Shown: one piece after another, positions 850 through 27,697 of the stretch
Layout of the letters: every line of letters starts with the position of its first letter
Position numbering within the stretch: position 1 is the first letter of the stretch
Assembly (NCBI GenBank): GCA_031961605.1
Contig: JAVRLH010000001.1
Coordinates: forward strand, 1 to 51,967
Reading direction: 5' to 3'
Length of the DNA stretch: 51,967 nucleotides
From: Thermoplasmatota archaeon
GTDB taxonomy: Archaea; Thermoplasmatota; Thermoplasmata; Thermoplasmatales; ARK-15
The notes under the pieces: model-generated
The model's database searches: none
What the model was told of the DNA's origin: nothing
What the model saw: the letters and a program-made list of their open reading frames with translations, nothing else
Position numbers and translations under genes: made by a program

Positions 850-2136
850 ATGTTATTTAAAAAATTGATGAGGATAAGTGTCTTGTTTATAACAGCTCTA
901 TTCGCAACAATTTTAATTTTAAGCGTGAGCGGTAATTCACAGAATGCACAGCAGGTAATGGTTATAAATTTCAATATGAGTGTGGATCCGGGTGCCGTAT
1001 CCCTTTTTCAGAGGAGCTTTAATTATGCATTATCTAATAATATACATTACGTTATAATAGAAATGAACACGCCAGGTGGATTAATGGATTCCATGTTATC
1101 CATAGTAAGTTTAATCCAGCAGGCTGAAAAAAATATTACAGTAATAACTTATGTTCCTGTGGGTGGTATGGCAGCATCCGCAGGATCCTACATTGCCATG
1201 GCATCCGATTATATCTTCATGGCAAATGGAACATTCATAGGTCCATCAACACCATACATTGAAGGCGTACCATCAAACACCTCGGAAACACAGCATGTTG
1301 TTAATGCTTCCCTTGCTCTGATGGAATCTCTTGCCCAGGAACATAACAGGAATGTTTCAGCAGTTATTCCCATGGTTGAGAACAATGTTGCATATACTGC
1401 ACAGCAGGCATATGGATTGAATGTTATAAACGGTCTTTCAGACTCTCTCTCAAATTTACTTGCAAGGTTAAATCTAACAAATGCAGGCATTATTTATGAG
1501 AACCCATCTTTTTATGATCAATTTGTTAGCTTTATAAGCAATGCAACAGTTGATGGTCTTCTCATCACTCTTGGTATAATTGCAATCCTTCTTGATCTTT
1601 ACCATGCAACAGTTCTATTAACAATAGTTGGTGTAATATCACTTTTACTTGGATTCTGGGGATCGGAATTGATAAGCGGTAATGCTGTTGCAATTATTCT
1701 TTTCATAATAGCTGCTGGTTTAATAATAGCTGAAATAAAGGTTTCACATGGTATATTCCTTATTGTGGGTGTTTTACTTGCCATATTTGCAACATGGCTT
1801 CTTGCGTCCGGTGTAAGTTATTCCCCCGGTCCATTTTCCCTCTCCTCCTATCTTGTTTTCACAGGTGAAGGAATTGTTGCATTTGTAGGTGCATATTACC
1901 TAAACTGGATTAGAAAAGCTTTAAGAACAGCACCAAAGACAGGGCCAGAAACGATAATTGGTAAATCTGGTTTTGTTGTGAGTGATCTCTCACCAGAGGG
2001 TGAGATCAGGGTGAATGGAATAATATGGAGGGCAAGGTCAAAATCTGGCCAAGTTATAAAAGCAGGGAAAAAGGTAAAGGTTGTTGAAAGGGAGGGTCTG
2101 GTTTTGATTGTGGAGGAGGAGAATGATGGAAATTAA
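850..2136 (+). CDS. NfeD-family membrane-bound serine protease (ClpP-class, stomatin-specific protease type) with C-terminal NfeD OB-fold
   Basis: Signal/TM segment, then a ClpP-like domain (IIEMNTPGGLMDS, AASAGSYIAMA), multiple TM helices and a C-terminal GKSGFVVSDLSPEGEIRVNGIIWRARS motif. Classic pairing with stomatin. Confidence 0.85.
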   Translation: MLFKKLMRISVLFITALFATILILSVSGNSQNAQQVMVINFNMSVDPGAVSLFQRSFNYALSNNIHYVIIEMNTPGGLMDSMLSIVSLIQQAEKNITVITYVPVGGMAASAGSYIAMASDYIFMANGTFIGPSTPYIEGVPSNTSETQHVVNASLALMESLAQEHNRNVSAVIPMVENNVAYTAQQAYGLNVINGLSDSLSNLLARLNLTNAGIIYENPSFYDQFVSFISNATVDGLLITLGIIAILLDLYHATVLLTIVGVISLLLGFWGSELISGNAVAIILFIIAAGLIIAEIKVSHGIFLIVGVLLAIFATWLLASGVSYSPGPFSLSSYLVFTGEGIVAFVGAYYLNWIRKALRTAPKTGPETIIGKSGFVVSDLSPEGEIRVNGIIWRARSKSGQVIKAGKKVKVVEREGLVLIVEEENDGN

Positions 2137-8767: not shown

Positions 8768-9706
8768 ATGGACATGATAGTTTCTTTTAATGCAAAAAGG
8801 GATATTTTCAATGAATATAATATAGGTAGGGTAATATTTTTAAATGAAGCAACGTATAAGGATATTGAGAATGCGGAAATACTATTCGCATTCAGGTTTG
8901 AGGATGAGCTAAATGATGAAACATTCAGAAAGATGAAGAATCTGAAGATTGTTCAGAGTTTGCTTGCGGGAGTGGATTATCTTCCATTCGAAAAACTGAA
9001 GGGAAAGGTTATTCTGAAAAATTCAGGTGCATTATCTTGGCTTATTGCTGAGCATGTTTTTGCCATGATACTTTCTGCATCAAGAAACATTGTTAAAAGA
9101 ACAATAAACATGAGAAATGGTCTGTTTGAGCAGACAGATTCTGGCGATACAATCAGGGGTAAAACAATTCTCATCATTGGTTATGGATCCATTGGTAAGG
9201 AGGTTGCAAAAATAGCAAAATGCTTTGATATGGAAATTCTGGCCATTGGGAGATCTGAGAAATGTGAACACTGTGAAAAATTCGGTTATCTTGAAAGTTT
9301 GCATGAGTTTTTGCCTCTTGCTGATATAGTTGTTGTTTCAATACCATTGACAAAGGAAACTAAGGATCTCATTGGAAAAAGGGAACTTGAATTGATGAAG
9401 AAAAATGTTATATTTGTGAACATTGCAAGGGGGAAGATAATTGATCAAGAATCATTTTACAACCATCTCTTAAAAAACAGAGAAATGAAAGCATGTCTTG
9501 ATGTATGGTGGAAATATCCAAGGTTGAATGAAAAATTCAAACAGGATTTTCCATTTGAAAATCTTGATAATGTGATCATGACACCACACCAGGCCGGAAT
9601 TTATAAAAATTACTTTGATGATATGGTTAGGTCAGGTGTAAGAAACATACTTAACTATTTAAAAGGAAATATGGAAAATGTTGTGAAGATTGAAGATTAT
9701 CTATAA
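8768..9706 (+). CDS. D-isomer-specific 2-hydroxyacid dehydrogenase family protein (second paralog)
   Basis: IIGYGSIGKEVA Rossmann motif, SLLAGVDYL and MTPHQAG. Confidence 0.85.
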   Translation: MDMIVSFNAKRDIFNEYNIGRVIFLNEATYKDIENAEILFAFRFEDELNDETFRKMKNLKIVQSLLAGVDYLPFEKLKGKVILKNSGALSWLIAEHVFAMILSASRNIVKRTINMRNGLFEQTDSGDTIRGKTILIIGYGSIGKEVAKIAKCFDMEILAIGRSEKCEHCEKFGYLESLHEFLPLADIVVVSIPLTKETKDLIGKRELELMKKNVIFVNIARGKIIDQESFYNHLLKNREMKACLDVWWKYPRLNEKFKQDFPFENLDNVIMTPHQAGIYKNYFDDMVRSGVRNILNYLKGNMENVVKIEDYL

Positions 9707-9937
9707 AAAAACAATTTCCTCATTTTCAACATATGTTCTGTAGAAAGGGCAATCAATATTTTTTCCATCGCACTTGAATGTTTTCATCTTTTTACAGTAT
9801 CCGTCCCTGTAATACGCACATAAACCCTCAGGAACAATGAATTTGCCGTAAATTTTACATTTTTCCCCTATGCATTTGAAACCCCTGTATGGGCCGTGGC
9901 AAATACCATTTTCATCCTCAAATGCACATCTCATCAT
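9701..9937 (-). CDS. small Cys-rich protein (10 Cys in 78 aa), probable metal-binding, function unknown
   Basis: MMRCAFEDENGICHGPYRGFKCIGEKCKIYGKF..CAYYRDGYCKKMKTFKCDGKNIDCPFY. Convergent 6-nt overlap with the dehydrogenase. Lies at the border of the accessory island. Confidence 0.5.
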   Translation of the reverse strand: MMRCAFEDENGICHGPYRGFKCIGEKCKIYGKFIVPEGLCAYYRDGYCKKMKTFKCDGKNIDCPFYRTYVENEEIVFL

Positions 9938-9959
9938 TTTTCAGTAATTGAACTAAAAC

Positions 9960-10449
9960 TTAAATTTTCCCAAACGTCAACTACCCACCCTGACGGATGG
10001 GGTTTGCTGCTGGTCTCCACCACACCCGTAAGCATGGATTCATTGAGCCGCAACGATTGGCTGGTTGACAGCAGCCTGAGATACTCAGATTCAAAGAAGA
10101 AACAAAAATATACTGTTGAAAAAGGATACGGTAGTAGAAAGAATTTCAATTATCTGGTGAGTAATAATGTAAAATCAGTTAATAATATTGCCAGGTAAGA
10201 ATGTGAGAACAAGAGCAATTGGATCACGGCAAGAGCAAAGGTAGTAAGAGAAATCCATAAAATGGGTTTAGAGGAATGGAAAGGATCTGTTGAATACAGT
10301 AAAATATGGAGAGTAGAAATATTCTTTCCTGCATTGAAAAGAGTGTGGGAGAAATGATAAAAGCAAGGAAGTTTATCTATCTTGTTCAAGAGTCATAAAT
10401 GAAGATTTACTATTACCTTATTTTAAGAAAATACACGGTGGTGAACTAA
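9960..10449 (+). pseudogene. degraded IS5-family (DDE_Tnp_1-type) transposase remnant
   Basis: One frame reads ...LLLVSTTPVS...VEKGYGSRKNFNYLV...(TAA at 10196-10198)...WKGSVEYSKIWRVEIFFPALKRVWEK(stops at 10355-10360). A shifted tail reads EMIKARKFIYLVQES. The 'Y..R..vE..F..lKR.fGE.i.ar....Q..E' block is the IS5-type C-terminal signature. At ~150 codons it is far too short and is interrupted. Confidence 0.55.
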
Positions 10450-10527
10450 AAATGATTAACATAACCTTTAGTTTACATGCTAGGAAACACCAAAAAATAT
10501 TTATAGTATTGTCTAATATTTTTACAT

Positions 10528-10935
10528 ATGACAAAATTGAATATAAATGAGTGCCCGTACTGTCATTCAATTATGATGTTATCAAAGGCACCTTTTTTAT
10601 ATCATGGTTCATACATAGGGTTATTTGAGGCTTACATTTGTCATCATTGTATGCGAGTTTATTTTACAGAAAGAGCTTACGAGAAAATTATGAGAGTTCC
10701 AACATCATTGGAAGATTTTACACCGTTTGAGGATCAACAATCTGTAAATCAAATTTCCAAAGCTACTAATTTAATAGTTATATCTAATCCTTCAAAATTA
10801 AAAATCTCAACGATTTCAAATAATAAGTTAGAGGTGGAACAGGAAAAGCCTGAGATCATATTAATGCAATCAAGTAATTTTAGGAATGAAAAAATGTATT
10901 CAAATAAAATAATACCTTTAGAGAGTGCGATTTAA
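10528..10935 (+). CDS. YgiT-type (MqsA-N-terminal-like) zinc-finger protein with a low-complexity C-terminal tail
   Basis: CPYC-x27-CHHC with an FLYHGSYIGLFEAYICHHCMRVYFTERAYEKI pattern like YgiT-type fingers. No recognisable HTH follows. Confidence 0.6.
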   Translation: MTKLNINECPYCHSIMMLSKAPFLYHGSYIGLFEAYICHHCMRVYFTERAYEKIMRVPTSLEDFTPFEDQQSVNQISKATNLIVISNPSKLKISTISNNKLEVEQEKPEIILMQSSNFRNEKMYSNKIIPLESAI

Positions 10936-11435
10936 ATGATATCATATATACCTACTCCCGAAAACACTGAAGATTTAGAGTTCTGAAATTCGATTATAAT
11001 CAATATCAAGTTTCTGTTGATGAAATTCCTGTTAAAATTAAAGGAATTTTAAGGGTTGCTACAGTTCCAGTTAGAATACTTAAGGTTAAGGAAAAAATCA
11101 ACCAAAAACCTCAATTTATTGTGCACTCAATAAACGTAGTTTCTTTTGTCAATAAAGGCCAATAAGGTATACCAAATTCTAACCCTTTAACACCTGATGA
11201 GCTAAATAGTATTGAAAGAAAAGACATAACTGAAAAGCTACACGTGTTAATAGAACCTTATAATTATTACATCACAGTAAATACAGAACCTTATTTTGCT
11301 ATCAGAACGAAGACAACTATAATCAAGGCAGAAGTTCTTATAGGTCGATTTGATGATTATGGGAATCCTATGTTCTTACTTGAACTAAATACTGCAATAA
11401 GTTATGCAATTGAAAAAGACATTCATTATGATTAA
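10936..11435 (+). pseudogene. disrupted ORF of unknown function (one frameshift plus one in-frame TAA)
   Basis: The ATG at 10936 (TAAATG overlap with the upstream gene) gives MISYIPTPENTEDLEF, then TGA at 10984. Another frame is open from 10971 (KFDYNQYQVSVDEIPVKIKG...VNKGQ). A TAA follows at 11163-11165, and the same frame then continues (GIPNSNPLTPDELNS...EKDIHYD) to 11435. Confidence 0.5.
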
Positions 11436-11460
11436 AAAATAATTTAGGGTGGAATCTAAT

Positions 11461-11706
11461 ATGTCTGATCCATGGAAAGATTGTGAATTATTATTTGATG
11501 AAAATGATGGACATTTTTTTGAGCGTATGAAAGATAGGTCTTATTCAGGCCCTGATTTTAGAGAATTTTTGATAAAAGGTACTAAGCACCTCGAATCTAA
11601 GAAAAAAAATTGTGAACAGGATTTTAGTGTAGAATTCTCCGGATGGGTAATAAAATGTAAAGTAAGATGTTGTAACATAGTTATGGGAACTTTGTATCAA
11701 AAGTAA
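11461..11706 (+). CDS. DUF4258-like small protein (putative toxin component)
   Basis: HFFERMKDRSYSGPDFREFLIKG...IVMGTLYQK resembles the 'H..eRm.eR.i....i.evl..G ... vvTvY' pattern of DUF4258. An SD-like GGGTGG lies 8 nt upstream of the ATG at 11461. Confidence 0.5.
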   Translation: MSDPWKDCELLFDENDGHFFERMKDRSYSGPDFREFLIKGTKHLESKKKNCEQDFSVEFSGWVIKCKVRCCNIVMGTLYQK

Positions 11707-11844
11707 AATAAGCCCTAAAGATATATTTTAGAAGTAATTTAAAGGAGTGATGCAAATTTTTTGTAAACAAAAATGTAACATATTCTGTAAGTTTCAAAAA
11801 TTTTTGATATTATTAAATTTTTTAATAAGTATTAGCTTAATTAA

Positions 11845-12735
11845 TTAAACTAATACCTTGATGCTCGTTGAGTCATTCAAATCAGCATGTATCTCGAAAC
11901 CACATTGTTTGCATTTGAATGTTGATCCATTTCTGTTGTTTTTCTCAACATAGTCGCATTTTGAGCATCTCAGTGATGTGTATTTTGGATCTACATAAAT
12001 ATTTTACCTAATTCTTCTGCTTTGTATTCAATGAATTTCTGCAATTGATATGGTGACCAATTGCCAAGCTTTCTGTTAAATTTTCTTCCATTGCCCTTAT
12101 TTCTCATCTTTGATGATTTTAGATCCTCAAGAGAAATTCGTCATAAGGGAGATTTACTATTTTCTTCGCTATAACATGATTTGTATCAAGCACGAACTTT
12201 CTTTTTTGAACACTCACCTTTTTTAATTTTCTATGAGCGGATCGAGTGCCTAAGTGCTGCAATTTTCTTTTTACATGTATATCTGAATCATTGCATATAT
12301 TTCCGCATCAAATATGACCTGCGCATTTGTATATTCGCCCCTCTAGTTGTCTATCAATGTTGAATTTGCCACTGTAAAATTTAATCTACCATTCACTTTA
12401 ACAAATGAAATTTTACGTGAATCTGGATAGAATTTGAATGTTCTTTTATCATACCTTACTGCAAAAGATTTTCTGTGTATTTTCTTATCTAATTTTCTTT
12501 GTTTCAATGCTTCTGCTGCCTCATCTCTTGCAGTCTGTACAAGTGCTGATGGTAATGTTGGTATTTTCTTTCTTATTTTTTTATATGTTCCCTTGTTTAG
12601 TTTATTTTTATAAAAATTTTGTTTTTCATATCCATAATTTAAGACAATTTGGCACGCTTCTTTAAACTGTTTCCCTGTTTCTATAAGTGCTTGATCGTAT
12701 GGTAATTTTACCTTAATTGTTCTGAAAATATCTTA
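11845..12735 (-). pseudogene. tnpB: heavily degraded IS200/IS605-family tnpB (OrfB) relic
   Basis: My translations on the minus strand are RTIKVKLPYDQALIETGKQFKEACQ...LPSALVQTARDEA...RYDKRTF (N-terminus) and HVKRKLQHLGTRSAHRKLKKVSVQKRKFVLDTNHVIAKKIVN. They continue with ISLEDLKSSKMRNKGNGRKFNRKLGNWSPYQLQKFIEYKAEELGKI and VDPKYTSLRCSKCDYVEKNNRNGSTFKCKQCGFEIHADLNDSTSIKVLV*. These blocks lie in different frames, separated by stops. There is no start codon, and the RuvC-I D-containing segment appears to be deleted. Confidence 0.8.
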
Positions 12736-12747
12736 CCAGAATATATT

Positions 12748-12830
12748 TAATATATATTTATTAATATTTCGCTTTCATCCCTCCCTTACGAAAGGGGTCT
12801 TCTCACTCATGGAAGATAAAATTTTAATTA
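12748..12830. repeat. ~80-nt AT-rich repeat with a short GC hairpin (copy A), abutting the 5' side of the tnpB relic; candidate IS200/IS605 end or MITE-like element
   Basis: ...AATATATATTTATTAATATTTCGCTTTCATCCCTCCCTTACGAAAGGGGTCTTCTC... has stem CCCTT (12783-12787) / AAGGG (12792-12796) with loop ACGA. It resembles 47745-47826 at roughly 65-70% by eye. Confidence 0.5.
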
Positions 12831-12852
12831 GTCCTTTTCATATATTTTAATA

Positions 12853-19472: not shown

Positions 19473-20186
19473 ATGAGAATTGGTATAATAACAGAAAATT
19501 TCAGAATTTACCATGAGGTTTCGGAAGAACTTACAAAAAGGGGAGTGGATTTTGTTTATATAAAGAATAAAAAAATACCTGAGGATGTCTGTGTTGTTCT
19601 TACAAGTGAAAATATAGATTTTGAACCAAAAATTTTCATTCATGATGTTTTAAGTGCTGTAAGAATGGCCATGAGCTATCTGTATGGTAAAAAAAAGTTC
19701 CAGAGGATTGTGATGGGAATAGATCCGGGTATGAGAACAGGACTTGCTGTTTTCGGTGATGATGTTTTTCTTGAGGGTTATGAGTTTACAGATATTGATG
19801 ATCTTTTGAATACAGTAAGAGAAATTGTAGAACATTACAGTCCTGAAAACGTTATTGTTAAAGTTGGAAACGGTGATGTACCGCACAGAAACAGGATCAT
19901 TAATAATTTGATAAATAGTTTTAAAGTTGAGCTGGTTAATGAAAACAATACCACCCAGCTTAAAAACAGGAACATTGAAGCGGCAAAGAAGATAGCATTT
20001 CTGAGCGGAAATGAAATAAAGAAAAGGATGCGAACAAGGATCAGTGATGGCGAAATAAAGGAAATCCAGAGGAAAAGCAGGCTTGAAAGCAATAACATTG
20101 TAACAATTTCAAGGAAGCTTGCATTAAAGGTTTTGAAAGGTGAAATGGATATTAAAGAGGCAATAGAAATACAAAAAGGAAAATGA
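19473..20186 (+). CDS. hypothetical protein with RNase H-fold (RuvC/YqgF-like) nuclease motif
   Basis: IVMGIDPGMRTGLAVFGDDV resembles the first-strand motif of RuvC/YqgF-type nucleases. The rest is uncharacterised. Confidence 0.4.
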   Translation: MRIGIITENFRIYHEVSEELTKRGVDFVYIKNKKIPEDVCVVLTSENIDFEPKIFIHDVLSAVRMAMSYLYGKKKFQRIVMGIDPGMRTGLAVFGDDVFLEGYEFTDIDDLLNTVREIVEHYSPENVIVKVGNGDVPHRNRIINNLINSFKVELVNENNTTQLKNRNIEAAKKIAFLSGNEIKKRMRTRISDGEIKEIQRKSRLESNNIVTISRKLALKVLKGEMDIKEAIEIQKGK

Positions 20187-20188
20187 TT

Positions 20189-20944
20189 TTATCTTTTCCA
20201 TTTTGGAATTGAAGGTCTCTTTTTGCTCTGGCTGAAGGTGAAATAGAAGAAAATAATGATTATAACAATAAAGGCTATTATGTACCATACCCAGGTGTAA
20301 TCTGGCGGTTTACCATAGTAAAATTCAATTGAATATGTTCTGGATCCGCTTGAAAATTCAAGAACGTTTGAATTTATTGTTGCAGTTAAAGTATGTGATC
20401 CATTGGAAATTATACCAACGTAATTGTACGTTACGTTGATTGTTGAATTTGGTGATATTGATGGAACAGTTACATTTCCAAGCATTGATCTATCAAGGTA
20501 AAATGTTACATTCACATTCTCTATTTTGTATGCTGTTGGATTCTTAACCTTTACAATAAAGGGTATGGGTTTTATAACCTTCACTGGAAGATATGTAATA
20601 TCGATTGCTGGTTTTGATCCGTTAACAATTCCAACAGCCTGAAGGTAAATGTAAACTGTTTGGGGTGTTGAAGGAAACGTTATGTTAACTGTGAATACAT
20701 TGTTTGATGATGAGTTGAAAGTCTCATTTATTGGTATTGCACCTGTAAGGTTCTGTCCTGCAAGTAAAACATGGATCTGATATTCATCAAAGTATCCATT
20801 TACGTAAATCTTATACTGGTATGTTTGCCCTGTACCAACCATTGTGGGGCCGGTTATGGTTGATGAAATGGCTCTTGCGTCTGAAAGAGGCACAATAATC
20901 AATGAAAAAATAATAATGATTGAAATTATGTGTGAAACTTTCAT
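20189..20944 (-). CDS. secreted, C-terminally membrane-anchored beta-rich surface protein, sequon-rich (putative N-glycoprotein)
   Basis: Signal peptide (MKVSHIISIIIIFSLIIVPLSDARA), about ten N-x-S/T sequons, and a C-terminal TM plus basic tail (KKRPSIPKWKR). ATGA overlap with the aglB stop. Confidence 0.7.
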   Translation of the reverse strand: MKVSHIISIIIIFSLIIVPLSDARAISSTITGPTMVGTGQTYQYKIYVNGYFDEYQIHVLLAGQNLTGAIPINETFNSSSNNVFTVNITFPSTPQTVYIYLQAVGIVNGSKPAIDITYLPVKVIKPIPFIVKVKNPTAYKIENVNVTFYLDRSMLGNVTVPSISPNSTINVTYNYVGIISNGSHTLTATINSNVLEFSSGSRTYSIEFYYGKPPDYTWVWYIIAFIVIIIIFFYFTFSQSKKRPSIPKWKR

Positions 20945-23900
20945 TTCTTTTTCCTCCTGGTGAATGCTACAAAGAGCATAAAGCCGGTTATTATTACCAC
21001 AGTTACAATTAATAATTCAGTTAAGAACAATGTCAGATTTGGTATAACATATGTAACGTTTCCATTGCTCACTATGCTCTGAACAGGCTGAACATAAACA
21101 ATGTTTAATGTATAATTCGATGTGTATTCCCTGTTTCCTGAAAATGCTGCCACAATAACTTCAACCTTCAAGGCATGGGTGGAAGAAATTGGTGTAAGTT
21201 TAACAGTAAACGTGTTCTGTGACCAGGAACCAACAGTTATATTGTTATTTTCAATTGAATAGTTCCATCCCAGGGACTTTAATTCAATATTGTTAAGAAT
21301 CGTTAGATTATATTTTTCAAAATCGTTTCCATGGTTTACTATTGTGAAATTGAGAAGAACAGAATTTCCTGAAATTACAATATTTGAAGGCTTTTCTATT
21401 GTTGTATTATGGTAAACGGTCACGTTCAAAGCAATATTTGTGAATGATATCAAGGACTGGTTGTATATGCCCCTGATCTCTATGGTGTTAACACCAATCG
21501 TCATCTTATCTGACACAACAACATTCACTTTTAGAATTTCTGTTTTGTCTGGGTAAATGTTCATGCTCTTCTGGCTAAATGTAACATTCCAAGGTTCTGT
21601 TGATTCAAAAGAAACATTTTCCGGAATGTTTCCTGTGTTCTTTACAGATACAACGAAAGTTAGATTTTCACCAACGTTTCCTGTTAGTGTTGGGGATAAA
21701 TCTGACATTATTATATCATGCAAAGTATTTCTGTTCATCTGGATATTCATTGTTGTTGATCTTGTTAAATTGACTGTATAATTCAAAGAATAATTTATTT
21801 TCATTCCATATTCCTTGTTTGTGGTATGTGCATTTATTGTGTAGTATCCCTGTGGTAGATTAATTGAAGCGAATCCATTTAAAGCTGTGATGTTGTAAAA
21901 TGAACCATTTCCACTCAAAGTAACATTTCCCGTGTATGTTCTGTTTGCATATGTAATGAAAAGGTTAAGGTTGTAACCCTTAACAAGGTTTATGTTGAAT
22001 TGAACATTTTTTCCGATAGAAACATTAACATGGCCAAGATAGCTGGCCGAGTATCCGGGATAGTAAACATAAACTGTGTAATTACCTGGTGGAATGGAGA
22101 TGTTGTAGAATCCTGATGAATCAGAAGTAGCTGTATAATAAGTCCTGTTGTTATAAAGAACAACATTTGCCCAGCTCAAAGAGTTGGAGGAGTAATAAAC
22201 ATGACCGAAAACACTTGAAAGATACTCGTATCCATGAACATAGAGGTTAACTGTTGTGTTTCCAAGAACAAATGTTGAATTTTGGGCCGTATAAATGTAA
22301 GGAACTGTTCCTGAAACAATATTTTCCACCGAGAATCTATAGTATCCTGTTGGTAATAGAAGTTCTGTGAATGTTTGTACTGGCTTAATCAGAACCATAT
22401 TGCCATACTCAATTTTCATATTCAGGGGCTTGGAATAATTTTTAATGTTTATGGAAACATAATTGCCATACGTGTAAGATAGTGTGATAAATGAATTCTT
22501 TGTTATATTTTGTGATCCAATGTAAACAAGGTTACCGCCAAATACGTACAATGTATATATACCAGGTTCTATTGAAATGTTGTTTCCTGAGTTTACAAGG
22601 TTACCCTGTGTGTTGAACCAGTATATGTTGTTTAGATTCGTTAAAACACTTACCCTTGCAAATATTTTTATGTCCAAATTTTCATTGAGAGAATAGGTAC
22701 TAGTATTAACATATATTTCCGATGGTGTTGCATAACTTTCAGTGTTTTCTGTTATTACATAAACTGAATAGTTCCCAGGAGGTAAATTAACACTGTATGA
22801 ATTTCCAGAAACATTTGAATAATAGGTTCTATTGCTGGATTTGAATACAATTTTAATATTTCCAGTGTACTGTGAAGGATAAACAACATTACCATAAACA
22901 TTAACATTTGTTGGTATCATATTTATTGTGTAATTTAGATTTGAAACAATGTTTTTCATATTATAACCATACGCAAATGCAGAAAATGAAAAATTGTTAC
23001 CCAAAACATAGAAATGGAAACTCCCATCAGACTGGATGTTCTGAACGTAGTATGGTTCATTGTTGTATTTTAAGAAAACAACAGCGTGTGTTATAACGAC
23101 CGAATTTGTCATTGCCTGCCCAGAAACACTCCTTGCAATCTGCAGGGTAATGTTGTAAATAACGTTACTGAAAATTGAAATTTTCATGTAATAAGCGTAA
23201 GGTACAGAAGTTGAAGAGTTAAAGCCAACAACACCGAGGTTGTAAATCCCCTGAGGTACATACACTGAAAAGTAACCTGAGTTGTTCGTATAAGCTCTAA
23301 CAAAATTGTTGTTCTGGAAAAGCACAACACCTGCATCCGGTATTGGATACTTTCCATATTTCACATAGCCTGAAAATTCCACCGCATTTGTTAAATTGAA
23401 GACAAGTGATGAATTTTTCATTGGTACATAGTATCCAATGTAAACGTAATGATCATTGTTGTAGAAATAATCGATGTAAATTGAATAGTACATATCAGGT
23501 AGTGTTAATGAGAATTGACCTGATAAATTTGTCACAACAACCTGAGAATTTTCATGTGTGAATTCATCTGTGAACCTTACTATTGCACCTGAAGCAGGTT
23601 TATTGTTTAAGAGAACAGTACCATTCAATGTGTAAGCTGTTAGTATATTGAAATTTAAAGTGCTTGATGAATTGAAGGATGAAAATGATGCAACCTGGTA
23701 GGATGAATAATATCCCAATTTTTCAACATTTACCCTGTATGATCCAGGTAAAATGTAAAGTGTATATGATCCATACTGATCCGTTTTTGTTTCATATTTC
23801 TGCATTCCATATGCCCATACAGTAACATTTTTTGCAGCTCTACCATTCTGATATGATACAGTTCCTGTTATTTTATCCGGATAAATAACAACATCATGCG

Positions 23901-26900
23901 TGATGTTTTGGTTTTGATTAACTGTCACATTTCCAACATTATAGTAAGATCCATTTATTTCAACACTTATGTTATATGTATGCGGTATGATGTTATTAAT
24001 TCTGTAATAACCCGATTTTGAAACTTTTGCCGAATAGTTCAAAGAATATGTTGTATTTGTTAAATGTAAAGTTGATCCTGATGGTATATAATCACCAGGC
24101 ATGTATGTGTTGTTTTTCATAATATTGTAATAAACCATACCATCAATATTGGATGAATTAACAATAAAGTTCTTTGTTAAAATATAACTTGGATTACCGT
24201 TTGGTTGTATTCCTGTGGAGATCCTCAATGCCTGATTTTCTGAAACAAAAATTTTTGTTTCGTTGAGAATTGTGCTTTCATGGAGGTAGAGTTTGTTCAT
24301 GTTTCCATTTGTTGAAACAATTAAGGTATCATTGCCTGCAACTGCATAAACAGTGTAATAGCCCGAAGAATTTGTGTATGTGTATGTGTGCGGTATACCG
24401 TACTGGTCATAAAGTGTTACAAGAACATTCGAAAGTGGATCACCGTTTGGCAAAGTAACTCTTCCCTGTATTATTGCACCAGGGTAGAATTTTACAAGTA
24501 CAACATTTGCTGGTAAAAGTTCGTTACCGGGTGGGAATAAAAGAACAGTTCCATTATTTGTTTGCTGAAGATAATAAGCCTCCTGCAATGATACAGCCTT
24601 CCATGCGTTTGTGTGGTTTTGATAATCTTTGTAGGGATTCCAAAATGATGTGCTGTAAACAACCTCAAAGTGTGTTAAATTCCATGCTGGCATGATTGGA
24701 TAATATCTCGTTTGGTTTGAAAGACCAGGTATGTAAGGACCTATGCCAACGTTTAAACCAGAATAACCAACATAAATCCTGTAAAGCATGGTGTTAAAGA
24801 ATGCTGGATTGTATGATATAACATAGTTAACAATCTGGGCAGTGGGTGGAACTGCATTCAGAGGATATGTATTTCCAGAAATATTTTCAGCAAGTATATT
24901 ATAATACTCCGTTGGTATAAACTGGCCGTTTATTATCTGTGTTGGTCTGTCAGAGAGAAATGCTGGTGCATAGAATATTCCAGTCTGTGTTCCAGATATA
25001 GGGAAAAGCCTGTAATCAACACCGAAGTATTCAATGCTGTAACCAGTTACCCTTTCAAGATTAACGTAAAGGTCAACAAGAACATTTTCAGGATACTGTG
25101 AAAGATCTCCCTTAACCAGAGCATACTTTGCATTGATCGTTGTTAAATTGTTTGTGTAATTCCCATATTTCTGTGGATTTGATAAAACAAGATTTATATA
25201 ATATGATGGATTCTTTGAAATATTGAAATAATAGTTCAAAATATTCTGCTCCTCCTGAGCGCCAAGATATTGAATTAATATTTTTTCCACCTGATTTGCC
25301 ATGGATGAATTGTAAAGTGCAGCATCAAGGATCCTTGCAATCAAAAGTGATATTGCATTGCTTTCATTCTGTGTTGTTAAAAACTGTCCAGCGATCTGAT
25401 ATCCATTCTGGAAGTTATCTGCAACTGTTGGATGCTGTCCTTCTTCTATCTCCTGGAATCCATAGTCCCACCAAGACAGGAATGCAGGCCGGTACTGACT
25501 TGTTTGGTTTGAATCCTGCGTGCTCAACCAGATCATTGCGTTCTGCCATGGATCGTTCTGCTTTGTTGTAATCTCGATACCATAGGCACCAAGATACCAG
25601 AGCCCTGAATAGTTCTGGGGTTTGAAGTAAGAAGGCATAACGTTGTAGATCTGTTGGTCATAAACAGTCTTGTTGTTGTAGGGTATTGCTGAATCAACAG
25701 CACCCCACATGTTTGGTAAAATAACAAACACTGCTATGAGAATTATAGCAATAACTTTCGTCCATTTTATACTTTTTCTGAAAGCTACCCTTATTGAATA
25801 ATTGAAAGCCCTGAAAGTTTTACCTATTTCCTCAAGGTGAAGCTTTGTTACTATTATATCAAGCATGTATGCTGCTGGTATAATAAAGCCCGGTGATGCG
25901 TTGTATATGAACCTTGCAGCTGCAAATGCCATGTAAACACTAACGAGAGAAAATATGACAAAGAATAGATAATATTCATTCTTGTTTTTTCTTATGTCGT
26001 AAATCATGAAGAAAAGACCTGCAACAAAAAGGAAGAAAACACCAACACTTGCATTCATTATTATTTCACCAAGTGTTGGAGACTGTGCTTCAGCTATTGT
26101 CATGTACATTGGTGTCTTTATGAAATAACCTGCACCTGAAAGTGCGTAGTTTATAATGCTTGGGTAGTAAATTTTTACAAATATGATAGCTATTATGGAA
26201 AGTACAATAACAATTGAATAAGTGAAAGTCCAGGGCCATTTTTGCGCGAACTCAAAGAACAATGTTGCCAAAATTACGAAAATGAGTAAATAGAATGGTG
26301 CACTCATCCATGGACTAACCATGTGTGTTATAAAGAAATATGGAAATCCTATGGGGTATGAAAAAAGACCGAAGAATATGGTAATCCAAAGTATATGGAA
26401 GGATGAAACGTTCCTTATTTTGTTGTAAAATATCTGGATAACAAGGTATATTAGAATAATTGCTTCAATGTAAGCAAAACCCTGCCACATTGCCTGTATT
26501 GTACCAAAACTAACACCTGCAAGCATTGAATATATTACAGTCAATTTGTTCTCCCTGAAGAATTTCAATGTTCCATTCTTCCAGCTTGAAAGGCTTAGAT
26601 AATTATCAACCCAAACTGTTCTATTTACACTCTTCAAAGCCTTAATGAAGAAATAAAATGTCCAAACAGCAAAGAACAAAATTACATCATCATAACCGTT
26701 CCAGGATGCCACACTCCTCATCATGTTTGATGCACTTGTGGCAATAAGTAATGCTGAAATGATACCAACCCTTCTGTTGAATGCCTCCTTACCAATCAGA
26801 TATGTTGGTATTGCAATTAAGGCACCGAATATTGCAGTAATAAGCATCATTGAATATCCAAGTGCATTCATCATACTTCCTGCAAATGGTAAGAAAATGT

Positions 26901-27210
26901 AAGCAAGGCCTATAACTGACCATTCGTAGAATGGTGGTCTTGGATCTATAAATCCAACAGGATAGTTGAGAAGAGGATCATATGTTAACTGGTGACCTGT
27001 GGAAACAATGTAATATATTACCCTTTCATGGTAATAGGAGTCAGCGCCACCGGATATTCCCGCACCACCAAAAATACCAAAACCGCTTTCAACTGCAGGT
27101 CCCCAGGCGTAGTATGCCCTCAGAAAAAATCCAATGAGTACTATGGAAAGCATTACAAGGAACACTGTTAAATCCCTTTTACCTTCAGGGCTGATATCAA
27201 GCCTACCCAT
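20941..27210 (-). CDS. aglB: giant archaeal oligosaccharyltransferase AglB/STT3 fused to a long C-terminal array of beta-sandwich repeats and a terminal TM anchor
   Basis: The N-terminal multi-TM domain carries GGADSYYHER (EL1 acidic motif). WWDYG is encoded at about 25461-25475, followed by DNFQNGYQIAG. From about residue 880 there are repeated carboxypeptidase-regulatory-like units (e.g. GRVTLPNGDPLSNVLVTLYDQYG..TNSSGYYTVY), then CARDB-like units (VGENLTFVVSVKNTGNIPENVSF). The protein ends with a TM plus RRKKK. Confidence 0.88.
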   Translation of the reverse strand: MGRLDISPEGKRDLTVFLVMLSIVLIGFFLRAYYAWGPAVESGFGIFGGAGISGGADSYYHERVIYYIVSTGHQLTYDPLLNYPVGFIDPRPPFYEWSVIGLAYIFLPFAGSMMNALGYSMMLITAIFGALIAIPTYLIGKEAFNRRVGIISALLIATSASNMMRSVASWNGYDDVILFFAVWTFYFFIKALKSVNRTVWVDNYLSLSSWKNGTLKFFRENKLTVIYSMLAGVSFGTIQAMWQGFAYIEAIILIYLVIQIFYNKIRNVSSFHILWITIFFGLFSYPIGFPYFFITHMVSPWMSAPFYLLIFVILATLFFEFAQKWPWTFTYSIVIVLSIIAIIFVKIYYPSIINYALSGAGYFIKTPMYMTIAEAQSPTLGEIIMNASVGVFFLFVAGLFFMIYDIRKNKNEYYLFFVIFSLVSVYMAFAAARFIYNASPGFIIPAAYMLDIIVTKLHLEEIGKTFRAFNYSIRVAFRKSIKWTKVIAIILIAVFVILPNMWGAVDSAIPYNNKTVYDQQIYNVMPSYFKPQNYSGLWYLGAYGIEITTKQNDPWQNAMIWLSTQDSNQTSQYRPAFLSWWDYGFQEIEEGQHPTVADNFQNGYQIAGQFLTTQNESNAISLLIARILDAALYNSSMANQVEKILIQYLGAQEEQNILNYYFNISKNPSYYINLVLSNPQKYGNYTNNLTTINAKYALVKGDLSQYPENVLVDLYVNLERVTGYSIEYFGVDYRLFPISGTQTGIFYAPAFLSDRPTQIINGQFIPTEYYNILAENISGNTYPLNAVPPTAQIVNYVISYNPAFFNTMLYRIYVGYSGLNVGIGPYIPGLSNQTRYYPIMPAWNLTHFEVVYSTSFWNPYKDYQNHTNAWKAVSLQEAYYLQQTNNGTVLLFPPGNELLPANVVLVKFYPGAIIQGRVTLPNGDPLSNVLVTLYDQYGIPHTYTYTNSSGYYTVYAVAGNDTLIVSTNGNMNKLYLHESTILNETKIFVSENQALRISTGIQPNGNPSYILTKNFIVNSSNIDGMVYYNIMKNNTYMPGDYIPSGSTLHLTNTTYSLNYSAKVSKSGYYRINNIIPHTYNISVEINGSYYNVGNVTVNQNQNITHDVVIYPDKITGTVSYQNGRAAKNVTVWAYGMQKYETKTDQYGSYTLYILPGSYRVNVEKLGYYSSYQVASFSSFNSSSTLNFNILTAYTLNGTVLLNNKPASGAIVRFTDEFTHENSQVVVTNLSGQFSLTLPDMYYSIYIDYFYNNDHYVYIGYYVPMKNSSLVFNLTNAVEFSGYVKYGKYPIPDAGVVLFQNNNFVRAYTNNSGYFSVYVPQGIYNLGVVGFNSSTSVPYAYYMKISIFSNVIYNITLQIARSVSGQAMTNSVVITHAVVFLKYNNEPYYVQNIQSDGSFHFYVLGNNFSFSAFAYGYNMKNIVSNLNYTINMIPTNVNVYGNVVYPSQYTGNIKIVFKSSNRTYYSNVSGNSYSVNLPPGNYSVYVITENTESYATPSEIYVNTSTYSLNENLDIKIFARVSVLTNLNNIYWFNTQGNLVNSGNNISIEPGIYTLYVFGGNLVYIGSQNITKNSFITLSYTYGNYVSINIKNYSKPLNMKIEYGNMVLIKPVQTFTELLLPTGYYRFSVENIVSGTVPYIYTAQNSTFVLGNTTVNLYVHGYEYLSSVFGHVYYSSNSLSWANVVLYNNRTYYTATSDSSGFYNISIPPGNYTVYVYYPGYSASYLGHVNVSIGKNVQFNINLVKGYNLNLFITYANRTYTGNVTLSGNGSFYNITALNGFASINLPQGYYTINAHTTNKEYGMKINYSLNYTVNLTRSTTMNIQMNRNTLHDIIMSDLSPTLTGNVGENLTFVVSVKNTGNIPENVSFESTEPWNVTFSQKSMNIYPDKTEILKVNVVVSDKMTIGVNTIEIRGIYNQSLISFTNIALNVTVYHNTTIEKPSNIVISGNSVLLNFTIVNHGNDFEKYNLTILNNIELKSLGWNYSIENNNITVGSWSQNTFTVKLTPISSTHALKVEVIVAAFSGNREYTSNYTLNIVYVQPVQSIVSNGNVTYVIPNLTLFLTELLIVTVVIITGFMLFVAFTRRKKK

Positions 27211-27300
27211 TATTTAATCACCATCCCCATTTTTCAATGGGATTAAAGACCACATGCCATATAATATAAAAAAGTTTTTCAAACAGAAACATAAAAAAAT

Positions 27301-27438
27301 TTAGTCTGATGTAAAAACCTTTTTCACGTTTGGTCTATCCTTGTAAAATATTGTTGAACCGCACTCGCAGGAAAGGTTCTGAGCATCAATCTCTCCTTCA
27401 AGAATCCTACCACACATGGCACACCTAAACCTGGACAT
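27301..27438 (-). CDS. rpoP: DNA-directed RNA polymerase subunit P (Rpo12/RPABC4), 45 aa zinc ribbon
   Basis: My translation is MSRFRCAMCGRILEGEIDAQNLSCECGSTIFYKDRPNVKKVFTSD. It lies immediately downstream of L37Ae, as in the conserved archaeal arrangement. It is below the ORF-track size cut-off. Confidence 0.8.
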   Translation of the reverse strand: MSRFRCAMCGRILEGEIDAQNLSCECGSTIFYKDRPNVKKVFTSD

Positions 27439-27697
27439 TCTCTCCCCTCTCTTTCACAATTTCCCTCTTTACCTCAGGCACATATGCTCCTCCAGCCATG
27501 GTATAACCGCACCTTGAACAGTACCATATGCCTGTTCCAATCCTTCTTAATGTTCTGTGGTTGCAGTTTGGACATGTATATGATTTTGTTCTTTGTTCCA
27601 TGATCTCCTTCCATCTCTTTTTTGTTGAAACACCATACCTTGGTCCGAACCTGCCTGCAATTCCTACCTTCTTTGTTCTCCTGCTCATTCTATTCAC
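27425..27697 (-). CDS. rpl37ae: 50S ribosomal protein L37Ae (eL43)
   Basis: KKVGIAGRFGPRYG and the zinc ribbon CPNC...CSRCG. Confidence 0.92.
   Translation of the reverse strand: MNRMSRRTKKVGIAGRFGPRYGVSTKKRWKEIMEQRTKSYTCPNCNHRTLRRIGTGIWYCSRCGYTMAGGAYVPEVKREIVKERGENVQV

Follow-up and report, generated by a model that had tools for sequence, protein, structure and literature searches.

A giant AglB oligosaccharyltransferase with a beta-sandwich stalk and a second membrane anchor in Thermoplasma-like archaea

Background

At the outer face of the membrane, AglB, an oligosaccharyltransferase (OST), transfers a dolichol-phosphate-linked glycan to the Asn of N-x-S/T sequons in exported proteins. 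Archaeal and bacterial OSTs are regarded as compact enzymes with a single subunit, roughly 590-1050 residues in length. A contig of a Thermoplasmatota archaeon (assembly GCA_031961605.1, contig JAVRLH010000001.1, positions 1 to 51,967; this whole stretch of 51,967 nucleotides is referred to here as the window) raises the question of what an AglB might do with more than twice that mass, as it carries an aglB-like gene of 2089 codons. A sequence-only reading of the window had proposed that this gene encodes an archaeal OST fused to its own glycosylatable, surface layer (S-layer)-like substrate, tethered to the membrane at both ends, in a Thermoplasmata-like organism. Its premise that characterised archaeal AglBs have roughly 600-1050 residues is fair, given the 591, 593 and 868 residues of the AglBs of Archaeoglobus fulgidus (PMC3703281). 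We asked whether the enzyme and the fusion are genuine, how widespread the architecture is and what role the extension could have.

The organism is indeed a member of Thermoplasmata, and the giant aglB gene is complete. It occupies 20941..27210 on the minus strand as one uninterrupted open reading frame (ORF) with an ATG start, no internal stops and 2089 codons before the stop, which bears out the gene as it was first read. Since stop codons are common at the ~35% G+C of the window, a chance origin of a 6.3-kb open frame is excluded. The translation, ~236 kDa when unglycosylated, is identical (100%) to an NCBI protein. By its composition table, the protein has no cysteine among its 2089 residues, and 73 of 120 homologues have none or one.

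The enzyme part is an intact AglB

The first half of the protein can be assigned to the AglB family (STT3/AglB/PglB; CAZy GT66) by profile, structure and motif. Residues 1-505 (25696..27210, minus strand) form the GT-C transmembrane (TM) domain, as indicated by the STT3 profile, the structural model and Foldseek, and residues 1-504 contain about a dozen segments that are hydrophobic on the Kyte-Doolittle scale. The extracellular globular domain follows at residues 506-905 (24496..25695, minus strand). The motifs GGADSYYHER (residues 54-63), WWDYG (580-584, nucleotides 25459-25473) and DNFQNGYQI (598-606), from which the N-terminal ~880 residues had been recognised as an archaeal OST, are all present. 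When residues 1-880 were scanned alone, Pfam STT3 (PF02516) scored 44 bits against a gathering cut-off of 24.5. The same family was unlisted in the Pfam scan of the full-length protein, where we suspect that the many repeats in the query affected filtering or reporting. TIGR04154 (archaeo_STT3) aligns with residues 18-684 (E 1e-54); its 186 bits compare with a curated cut-off of 450, so the protein is a relative and not a member of this archaeosortase A-associated AglB subfamily.

Searching the sequences of the PDB with phmmer gave matches exclusively to A. fulgidus AglB proteins, including the C-terminal domains 3vgp and 3vu0. For residues 1-1000, AlphaFold2 with 46 homologues gave a model with a mean predicted local distance difference test (pLDDT) of 87 and a predicted template modelling score (pTM) of 0.83. 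Its top Foldseek matches were A. fulgidus AglB structures (7e9s/3wak/5gmy/3waj; E 3e-24, target TM-score 0.65), followed by human and yeast STT3 and then by Campylobacter lari PglB. The overall fold accords with that of solved OST structures, which have a 13-TM domain and an extracellular globular domain.

The catalytic residues were scored for conservation in a 47-sequence alignment. D57, which aligns with D47 of A. fulgidus AglB, is present in 47/47, as are T371, I372 and E374 of T371-I372-A-E374. The second acidic site, position 174, is Asp in 33 sequences, the window protein among them, and His in 14. W580-W-D-Y-G584 is invariant in all 47 aligned sequences, and WWDYG was found in 119 of 120 homologues. 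At the DK-motif position the protein reads D598-N-F-Q601-N-G-Y-Q-I, a non-canonical variant in which Gln replaces Lys. The variant is well conserved (D598 in 46/47, F in 47/47, Q601 in 43/47 and G in 47/47), and it aligns with NNFQAG of chain 3vgp_A, where Gln is seen as well.

The closest well-characterised comparison is A. fulgidus AglB-L (868 residues; PDB 3WAJ/3WAK/5GMY/7E9S). The two proteins share the GT-C TM fold with an extracellular globular domain, the GG.D Asp in external loop 1, the TIxE motif in external loop 5, WWDYG and a conserved NES sequon after (D/N)xFQxG. In the shared part the identity is ~16%, and the window protein has Gln at the DK-motif Lys position. Unlike AglB-L, it continues for ~1090 further residues, comprising ~10 beta-sandwiches, two CARDB/DUF11-like modules and a second anchor. 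By its motifs, the segment from residue 1 to ~1000 is a complete AglB, intact in its catalytic residues apart from the Gln variant of the DK motif. The features needed for catalysis thus appear to be in place, and transfer activity is predicted. We have very little doubt that this is a true AglB, to all appearance active, and that its fused stalk is conserved.

The stalk and its second membrane anchor

Beyond the globular domain the chain is a string of beta-sandwiches. The first of these, at residues 911-998 (24217..24480, minus strand), is the best-conserved segment of the whole protein. About ten further CarboxypepD_reg/transthyretin-like domains make up the stalk proper at residues 1027-1830 (21721..24132, minus strand), as recognised by PF13620, by tiling with a hidden Markov model (HMM) and in the structural model. 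Pfam CarboxypepD_reg (PF13620) scored 143 bits over six stretches, against a cut-off of 32.3. An iterative HMM built from homologues tiles 9-10 copies of ~85 residues each over residues 911-1830, and the gap that it leaves at 1589-1662 is also all-beta in the model, which gives ~11 domains in this region.

Modelled with AlphaFold2, residues 890-2089 are all-beta up to a final helix of 30 residues (residues 1170-1199 of the fragment). The pLDDT of 86.3 gives confidence in the individual domains, whereas with a pTM of 0.51 the overall shape of the stalk is uncertain. Foldseek matched this model only to generic strings of immunoglobulin (Ig) or macroglobulin (MG) domains at a global TM-score of ~0.1, for example hydin, alpha-2-macroglobulin, complement C5, DSCAM and the Bacillus anthracis TIE protein. 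Neither Pfam, NCBIfam nor Foldseek suggested an enzymatic or known lectin module in the stalk, and the columns conserved among homologues are only G, Y, P and N positions of the fold core.

Two Ig-like modules follow at residues 1831-2058 (21037..21720, minus strand). In this part, choice-of-anchor T scored 30.8 bits against a cut-off of 70 and the DUF11 repeat (TIGR01451) 21.2 against 24, both below threshold, and Pfam CARDB (PF07705) gave no match in residues 1870-2089. We therefore name these modules 'CARDB/DUF11-like', on the evidence of the V.N.GN signature in each, whose N-G-N columns are nearly invariant among homologues, and of the beta-sandwich strands in the model. The protein ends in a TM helix at residues about 2059-2084 with an RRKKK tail (20944..21036, minus strand; hydropathy 2.7). 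A Kyte-Doolittle scan puts the hydrophobic segment at 2066-2084, directly before the RRKKK, the model has a helix here, and a hydrophobic tail with Arg or Lys is found in about 115 of 120 homologues. We considered an archaeosortase-type sorting signal for this terminus. A PGF/PEF-like motif is absent and no conserved residues precede the helix, and a plain TM anchor is preferred. From the topology of the solved AglB structures and the positive-inside rule, the chain beyond the globular domain would be extracellular until the last helix, and the RRKKK tail cytoplasmic.

Profiles, model and hydropathy thus agree on an AglB that is continued by a beta-sandwich stalk of ~1150 residues and a second membrane anchor, much as had been proposed. 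In detail, the ~10 transthyretin-like repeats counted by eye have become ~11 and the terminal helix with its basic tail stands, while the 'two or three' CARDB-like modules come down to two, recognised by sub-threshold profiles only.

The stalked form is the standard AglB of Thermoplasma-like archaea

The architecture had been taken for an outlier, and in this respect the sequence-only reading was mistaken. At least 249 homologues have both WWDxG and a C-terminal anchor; the fused form is common in the clade, though undescribed. The best 120 database matches have 2024-2204 residues (bar one of 1589), with 28-83% identity and nearly all with full coverage. The same stalk length is shared by 232 of the 249 proteins, in which the distance from the WWD motif to the C-terminal helix has a median of 1502 residues and an interquartile range of 1484-1541. 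The nearest relative of the window protein comes from the metagenome-assembled genome (MAG) TVZ.SD19.226, at 83% identity, and the next group stands at ~54%. By sequence, the window protein is a divergent orthologue from a separate hot-spring lineage of Thermoplasmata.

For a survey of the locus, one genome per species was scanned with tblastn, which gave 80 loci. Nearly all are labelled as Thermoplasmata, Thermoplasmatota, Thermoplasmatales or a genus thereof, the exceptions being an unclassified 'uncultured archaeon' clone and a MAG of Methanomassiliicoccaceae. Represented among the loci are Thermoplasma sp., Cuniculiplasma sp., Ferroplasma sp., Acidiplasma aeolicum, E-plasma and, as finished chromosomes, Oxyplasma meridianum (M1) and clone ASS_A1. 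Within Cuniculiplasma the giant AglB is present in Cuniculiplasma sp. SKW4 (L035) and sp. SKW3 (P0150), the copy of C. divulgatum being unconfirmed by name. With a Thermoplasma sp. homologue as the query, orthologues from T. volcanium and its relatives were found. For example, TVG1271204 of T. volcanium GSS1 (BAB60377.1 / Q979C6; 2076 residues), which bears the UniRef name dolichyl-phosphooligosaccharide-protein glycotransferase, is a more distant member of the same family, with the same length class and C-terminal anchor. WYX99875.1 of O. meridianum (2113 residues) is 31% identical over 99% of the window protein and has the same CARDB partner downstream, and QRF74944.1 of a Thermoplasmatales archaeon (2108 residues, annotated AglB) and the protein of Caldiplasma sukawensis are likewise more distant members. 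The last homologue search by protein returned no entries named Ferroplasma, T. acidophilum or Picrophilus, the last of which bears an S-layer.

The survey also bears on the simplest way of explaining the fusion away, namely that an error of assembly or a frameshift has joined an AglB gene to a surface-protein gene lying downstream of it. In nearly all of the 80 loci, each from an independent genome, one frame stays open over 2050-2200 codons and specifies the same hydrophobic and basic C-terminus; the finished sequences of T. volcanium GSS1, O. meridianum M1 and clone ASS_A1 are among those with a continuous frame, and homologues are collinear with the giant AglB over 95-100% of the query. A few loci have shorter frames (L004, 1589 residues; L057, 1232 residues; L069, 1592 residues). 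At L057 the tblastn match continues beyond the break and covers residues 13-2007, a sign of a local error, and we infer the same for L004, whose match ends at residue 1697 near the stop, and for L069, a 5'-truncated frame. The artefact explanation is thus close to impossible, and the fusion, as the sequence-only reading supposed, is genuine.

Other length classes exist within the family. Twelve proteins of 1425-1442 residues form a short-stalk class with the same C-terminal anchor, including Acidiplasma (L047, L052 and L055, Acidiplasma aeolicum; P0252-P0256 are also among the length-class variants), and a few long forms have 2300-2480 residues. The AglB of the Methanomassiliicoccaceae MAG (L063) has 926 residues, and its tblastn match covers query residues 72-996, which suggests that it ends at about the first beta-sandwich.

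Conservation is distributed very unevenly along the chain. The median identity to homologues is 35% in the TM domain and 44-47% in the globular domain. It reaches 51%, the highest value in the protein, in the first beta-sandwich (911-998) and falls to 32% in the linker 998-1026, to 19-26% in domains 2-13 and to 19% in the final helix. Because the first beta-sandwich is the best conserved and the 926-residue AglB appears to reach its end, this domain is probably part of the enzyme. For the rest of the stalk, an identity of 19-26% together with a narrow interquartile range of length means that it is the length, and not the sequence, that is conserved. We also looked for a stand-alone ancestor of the stalk by searching with residues 1000-2060. 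Among the 430 matches no clear candidate emerged: the collinear ones are giant AglBs, and of the nine STT3-less matches examined, four long ones, which start at a domain or close to one, have the look of truncated ORFs, while the short ones are ambiguous.

Judged from these genomes, the giant stalked form is the standard AglB of Thermoplasma-like archaea. Papers on the clade state merely that 'AglB is present' (PMC5155288, PMC3750248, PMC10354927). The size or architecture of the AglB of Thermoplasmatales was not discussed in what our full-text literature searches returned, which included accessions and did not cover the surveys of Nikolayev et al. 2020 and Jarrell et al. 2014. These searches found no mention of the accessions TVG1271204, TV1235, Q979C6 or BAB60377, and no experimental study or assay of any member of the giant AglB family. 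The family is an undescribed variant of a well-known enzyme, long public in databases under the names AglB, STT3 or dolichyl-phosphooligosaccharide-protein glycotransferase.

Sequons and the question of a built-in substrate

Is the stalk a dedicated acceptor for the enzyme that carries it? Sequons, defined as N-x(not P)-S/T, were counted computationally. The protein has 74, with 18 in residues 1-880 and 56 in residues 881-2089, where the composition would predict 28.6. The 'at least ~60' sequons counted by eye in the extension were thus a slight overcount, and the enrichment of about twofold is real. It extends across the family, with a median of 2.1-fold and counts from 10 to 79. The density is 4.6 per 100 residues in the stalk and 4.0 in the 251-residue partner protein encoded next to it, as compared with 0-0.9 in the cytoplasmic proteins of the window. 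Only N615, N844 and N865 of the globular domain, N960 of the first beta-sandwich and N1052 are conserved in position across the family; all other positions have a mean occupancy of 10%. Since sequons are about as dense in neighbouring exported proteins and turn over in position, they represent a general property of exported proteins and mark no dedicated acceptor module. On the sequence evidence the stalk is almost certainly glycosylated, like any exported protein of this organism, and the idea of an enzyme fused to its own substrate was overstated. Elsewhere in the window, a 428-residue membrane protein with an SppA/ClpP-like serine peptidase domain (850-2136, plus strand) is also ~2-fold enriched in sequons, which fits a general glycosylation of exported proteins.

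The suggestion that the stalk is S-layer-like has fared no better. No S-layer family was present in the Pfam or NCBIfam results for the giant AglB, no S-layer structure was among the 50 Foldseek matches listed, and the structural matches are the generic Ig/MG strings described above.

A conserved downstream partner

Directly 3' of the giant gene lies a gene for a 251-residue type-I membrane protein (20189..20944, minus strand) with 10 sequons. The protein has a signal peptide and two Ig-like domains, and its C-terminus is a TM helix with a basic tail. Its second Ig-like domain passes the Pfam CARDB threshold (34.1 bits against 22.7). The partner is found in this position in 64 of the 80 loci, and its ATG overlaps the aglB stop codon by 4 nt (ATGA). 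In O. meridianum it also lies 3' of the giant gene with the same 4-nt overlap, and there the flanking genes are different. From this arrangement, the partner is predicted to be co-transcribed and translationally coupled with aglB. We tested whether it might be a duplicate of the C-terminal modules of the giant AglB, and BLASTP found no significant similarity. Like the giant AglB, it is without cysteine.

The codons at the end of aglB (20941-20958, minus strand: AGG AGG AAA AAG AAA TGA), which specify the RRKKK tail, place a Shine-Dalgarno-like AGGAGG 9 nt 5' of the partner ATG. This AGGAGG could be the ribosome-binding site of the partner; as it both encodes RR and precedes the partner ATG, the basic tail and the coupling signal would share nucleotides. 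In the intergenic region upstream of aglB (27211..27300, minus strand), a TATA-like TTTATATTATAT at about 27259-27270 and GGTGAT 7 nt 5' of the ATG are a putative promoter and ribosome-binding site of aglB's own.

The possible role of the stalk

The best overall explanation, and a reasonably probable one, is an AglB whose stalk serves as a glycosylated spacer in the surface coat. The stalk would be a non-catalytic, heavily N-glycosylated structural element, anchored in the membrane at both ends, on which selection would act through length and not through sequence. A non-catalytic role is suggested by the conserved columns, which belong to the fold core only, and by the Foldseek matches, which are bead-on-a-string Ig/MG proteins only; the role of a spacer is suggested by the strict conservation of length. 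We lean, with some reserve, towards this structural role over an enzymatic one. At roughly 4 nm per domain, a chain of ~13 that leaves the membrane and returns to it would form a loop ~20-25 nm high. Such a loop could hold the enzyme within an unordered glycoprotein coat that replaces the S-layer, and might contribute to this coat or set its thickness. The 251-residue partner would probably act as a second subunit or as a docking point for the stalk.

A spacer of this kind has a likeness in eukaryotes. NOMO (Nodal modulator) is a type-I protein of the endoplasmic reticulum with ~12 transthyretin/Ig-like domains and a C-terminal TM helix, and it is reported to be a spacer in the lumen of that compartment. 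The stalk resembles it in being a string of CarboxypepD_reg/transthyretin-like domains that ends in one TM helix and in its proposed length-dependent role as a spacer. Pfam NOMO_5th scores 18.6 bits in the giant AglB, below its cut-off, and is listed for many homologues. Unlike the giant AglB, NOMO carries no glycosyltransferase and has only one end anchored in the membrane; the likeness is one of a very common fold, and we do not claim homology.

The coat itself has been seen in relatives. Cryo-electron tomography of C. divulgatum and O. meridianum showed no S-layer, in agreement with the lack of S-layer genes, and revealed a dense, unordered 'exterior protein layer' of ~20 nm, of unidentified composition, that was proposed as the anchor of the archaellum stators (PMC12448462). 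O. meridianum, one of the two species, encodes the giant AglB, and the calculated height of the stalk agrees with that of the layer, which is suggestive. The earlier idea of a glycocalyx component built into the glycosylation machine is plausible in this light. A place for the stalk in the ~20 nm layer, as component or as ruler, is a tentative proposal, rather doubtful as it stands. Several points weigh against it. The height of ~20 nm is arithmetic on a domain count, and with a pTM of 0.51 the geometry between the domains is uncertain. An OST is normally present in low copy number, which fits poorly with a bulk component of the coat. Thermoplasmata lineages with undescribed envelopes have the giant form as well. 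Acidiplasma, of the order Thermoplasmatales, has the 1425-residue short-stalk form, and a fixed length is thus not essential. Finally, the 19% identity of the C-terminal helix suits a plain anchor and gives no sign of specific packing.

Other roles for the stalk have to be weighed against that of a spacer. It could, together with the partner, represent built-in accessory subunits of the OST, a platform that handles substrate or glycan by capturing unfolded exported chains or the lipid-linked glycan and offering them to the active site. The eukaryotic OST (STT3, ribophorin I/II, OST48; PDB 6S7O/6S7T) has a catalytic subunit that is homologous by Foldseek, and its accessory subunits are TM-anchored beta-sandwiches on the active-site side, to which the stalk and partner may be compared by analogy, as they may to lectin or chaperone modules. 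The conserved operon partner with its overlapping stop and start codons would fit, as would the first beta-sandwich, the most conserved domain, whose end the 926-residue Methanomassiliicoccaceae AglB appears to reach by tblastn coverage; moreover, CarboxypepD_reg, fn3_3 and PEGA-type domains, to go by their Pfam names, are often associated with carbohydrates. However, beyond domain 1 there are no conserved surface residues and the identity is 19-26%, ten or more domains exceed what a binding platform needs, and strict conservation of length favours a spacer. Pfam, NCBIfam and Foldseek detected no lectin or chaperone family, nor did Pfam and Foldseek find any similarity, in sequence or specific structure, of the stalk or partner to the OST accessory subunits. 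In contrast to the multi-subunit eukaryotic enzyme, archaeal OSTs are regarded as single-subunit, and a complex of stalk and partner is here a proposal from the genes alone. On this evidence we regard a role as accessory subunits as unlikely.

Cleavage of the giant protein into a normal-sized AglB and a C-terminally anchored surface glycoprotein, with the fusion ensuring their co-expression, would be in keeping with the boundary at 998-1026, a less conserved linker (32% identity) near which the 926-residue AglB seems from its tblastn coverage to end. Yet this linker shows no visible protease site or conserved cleavage motif and is modelled as a continuous chain with pLDDT >75, and the nine STT3-less matches examined gave no clear stand-alone stalk gene, which leaves a polyprotein quite improbable. 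Still less can be said for an adhesin or cell-contact device, directed at mineral surfaces, biofilm matrix or other cells and only incidentally joined to AglB. The Foldseek match to the B. anthracis TIE protein, the SdrD-like/SpaA-like Pfam matches in homologues and a fast evolution typical of exposed surface proteins point in this direction. But a stalk held in the membrane at both ends lacks a free domain at its tip, a terminal domain that is variable or specialised for binding is absent, and length and domain order are kept across very different habitats; we consider this role very improbable.

Neighbouring genes and other features of the window

A 237-residue DUF460-like gene (19473-20186, plus strand) is convergent with the aglB-partner pair and syntenic in 66 of the 80 loci, even though the remaining neighbours vary, with no apparent functional link. 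The exosome/L37ae operon 5' of aglB, by comparison, is common only to the seven closest relatives. No cluster of agl glycosyltransferase genes adjoins the giant aglB in the window. A 45-residue ORF, MSRFRCAMCGRILEGEIDAQNLSCECGSTIFYKDRPNVKKVFTSD (27301-27438, minus strand), overlaps the 3' end of the L37ae gene (27425-27697). It has a CxxC...CxC zinc ribbon and a weak Pfam match to DUF1922, and its position is what we take to be the usual site of RNA polymerase subunit P in archaeal exosome/L37ae operons.

About 3 kb at 9700-12850 have the lowest G+C of the window (0.30-0.32) and hold short ORFs only, namely one for a 135-residue zinc-ribbon-like protein with a weak DUF7479 match and several of 45-100 residues. 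No tRNA, Rfam match or significant repeat was found in this region, which may be degraded or mobile. The tRNA and Rfam scans of the entire window gave no matches.

Conclusions

The contribution of this window itself is modest, being one more divergent orthologue. The family to which it leads means that a class-level lineage, including the long-studied Thermoplasma, uses an OST of more than twice the usual size. A bolder possibility is that AglB is load-bearing in the envelope, with stalk and partner forming glycan-covered arches that would scaffold the ~20 nm layer or act as its ruler and might also be the matrix in which the archaellum stators are anchored. We think this improbable; if true, it would be the first multi-subunit, architecture-building OST outside eukaryotes. 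The discrete classes of stalk length would offer a natural series in which the thickness of the coat could be related to the length of the stalk. In these archaea, the giant AglB offers a testable candidate for the ruler of the coat or one of its components, and for a coupling of coat assembly to glycosylation.

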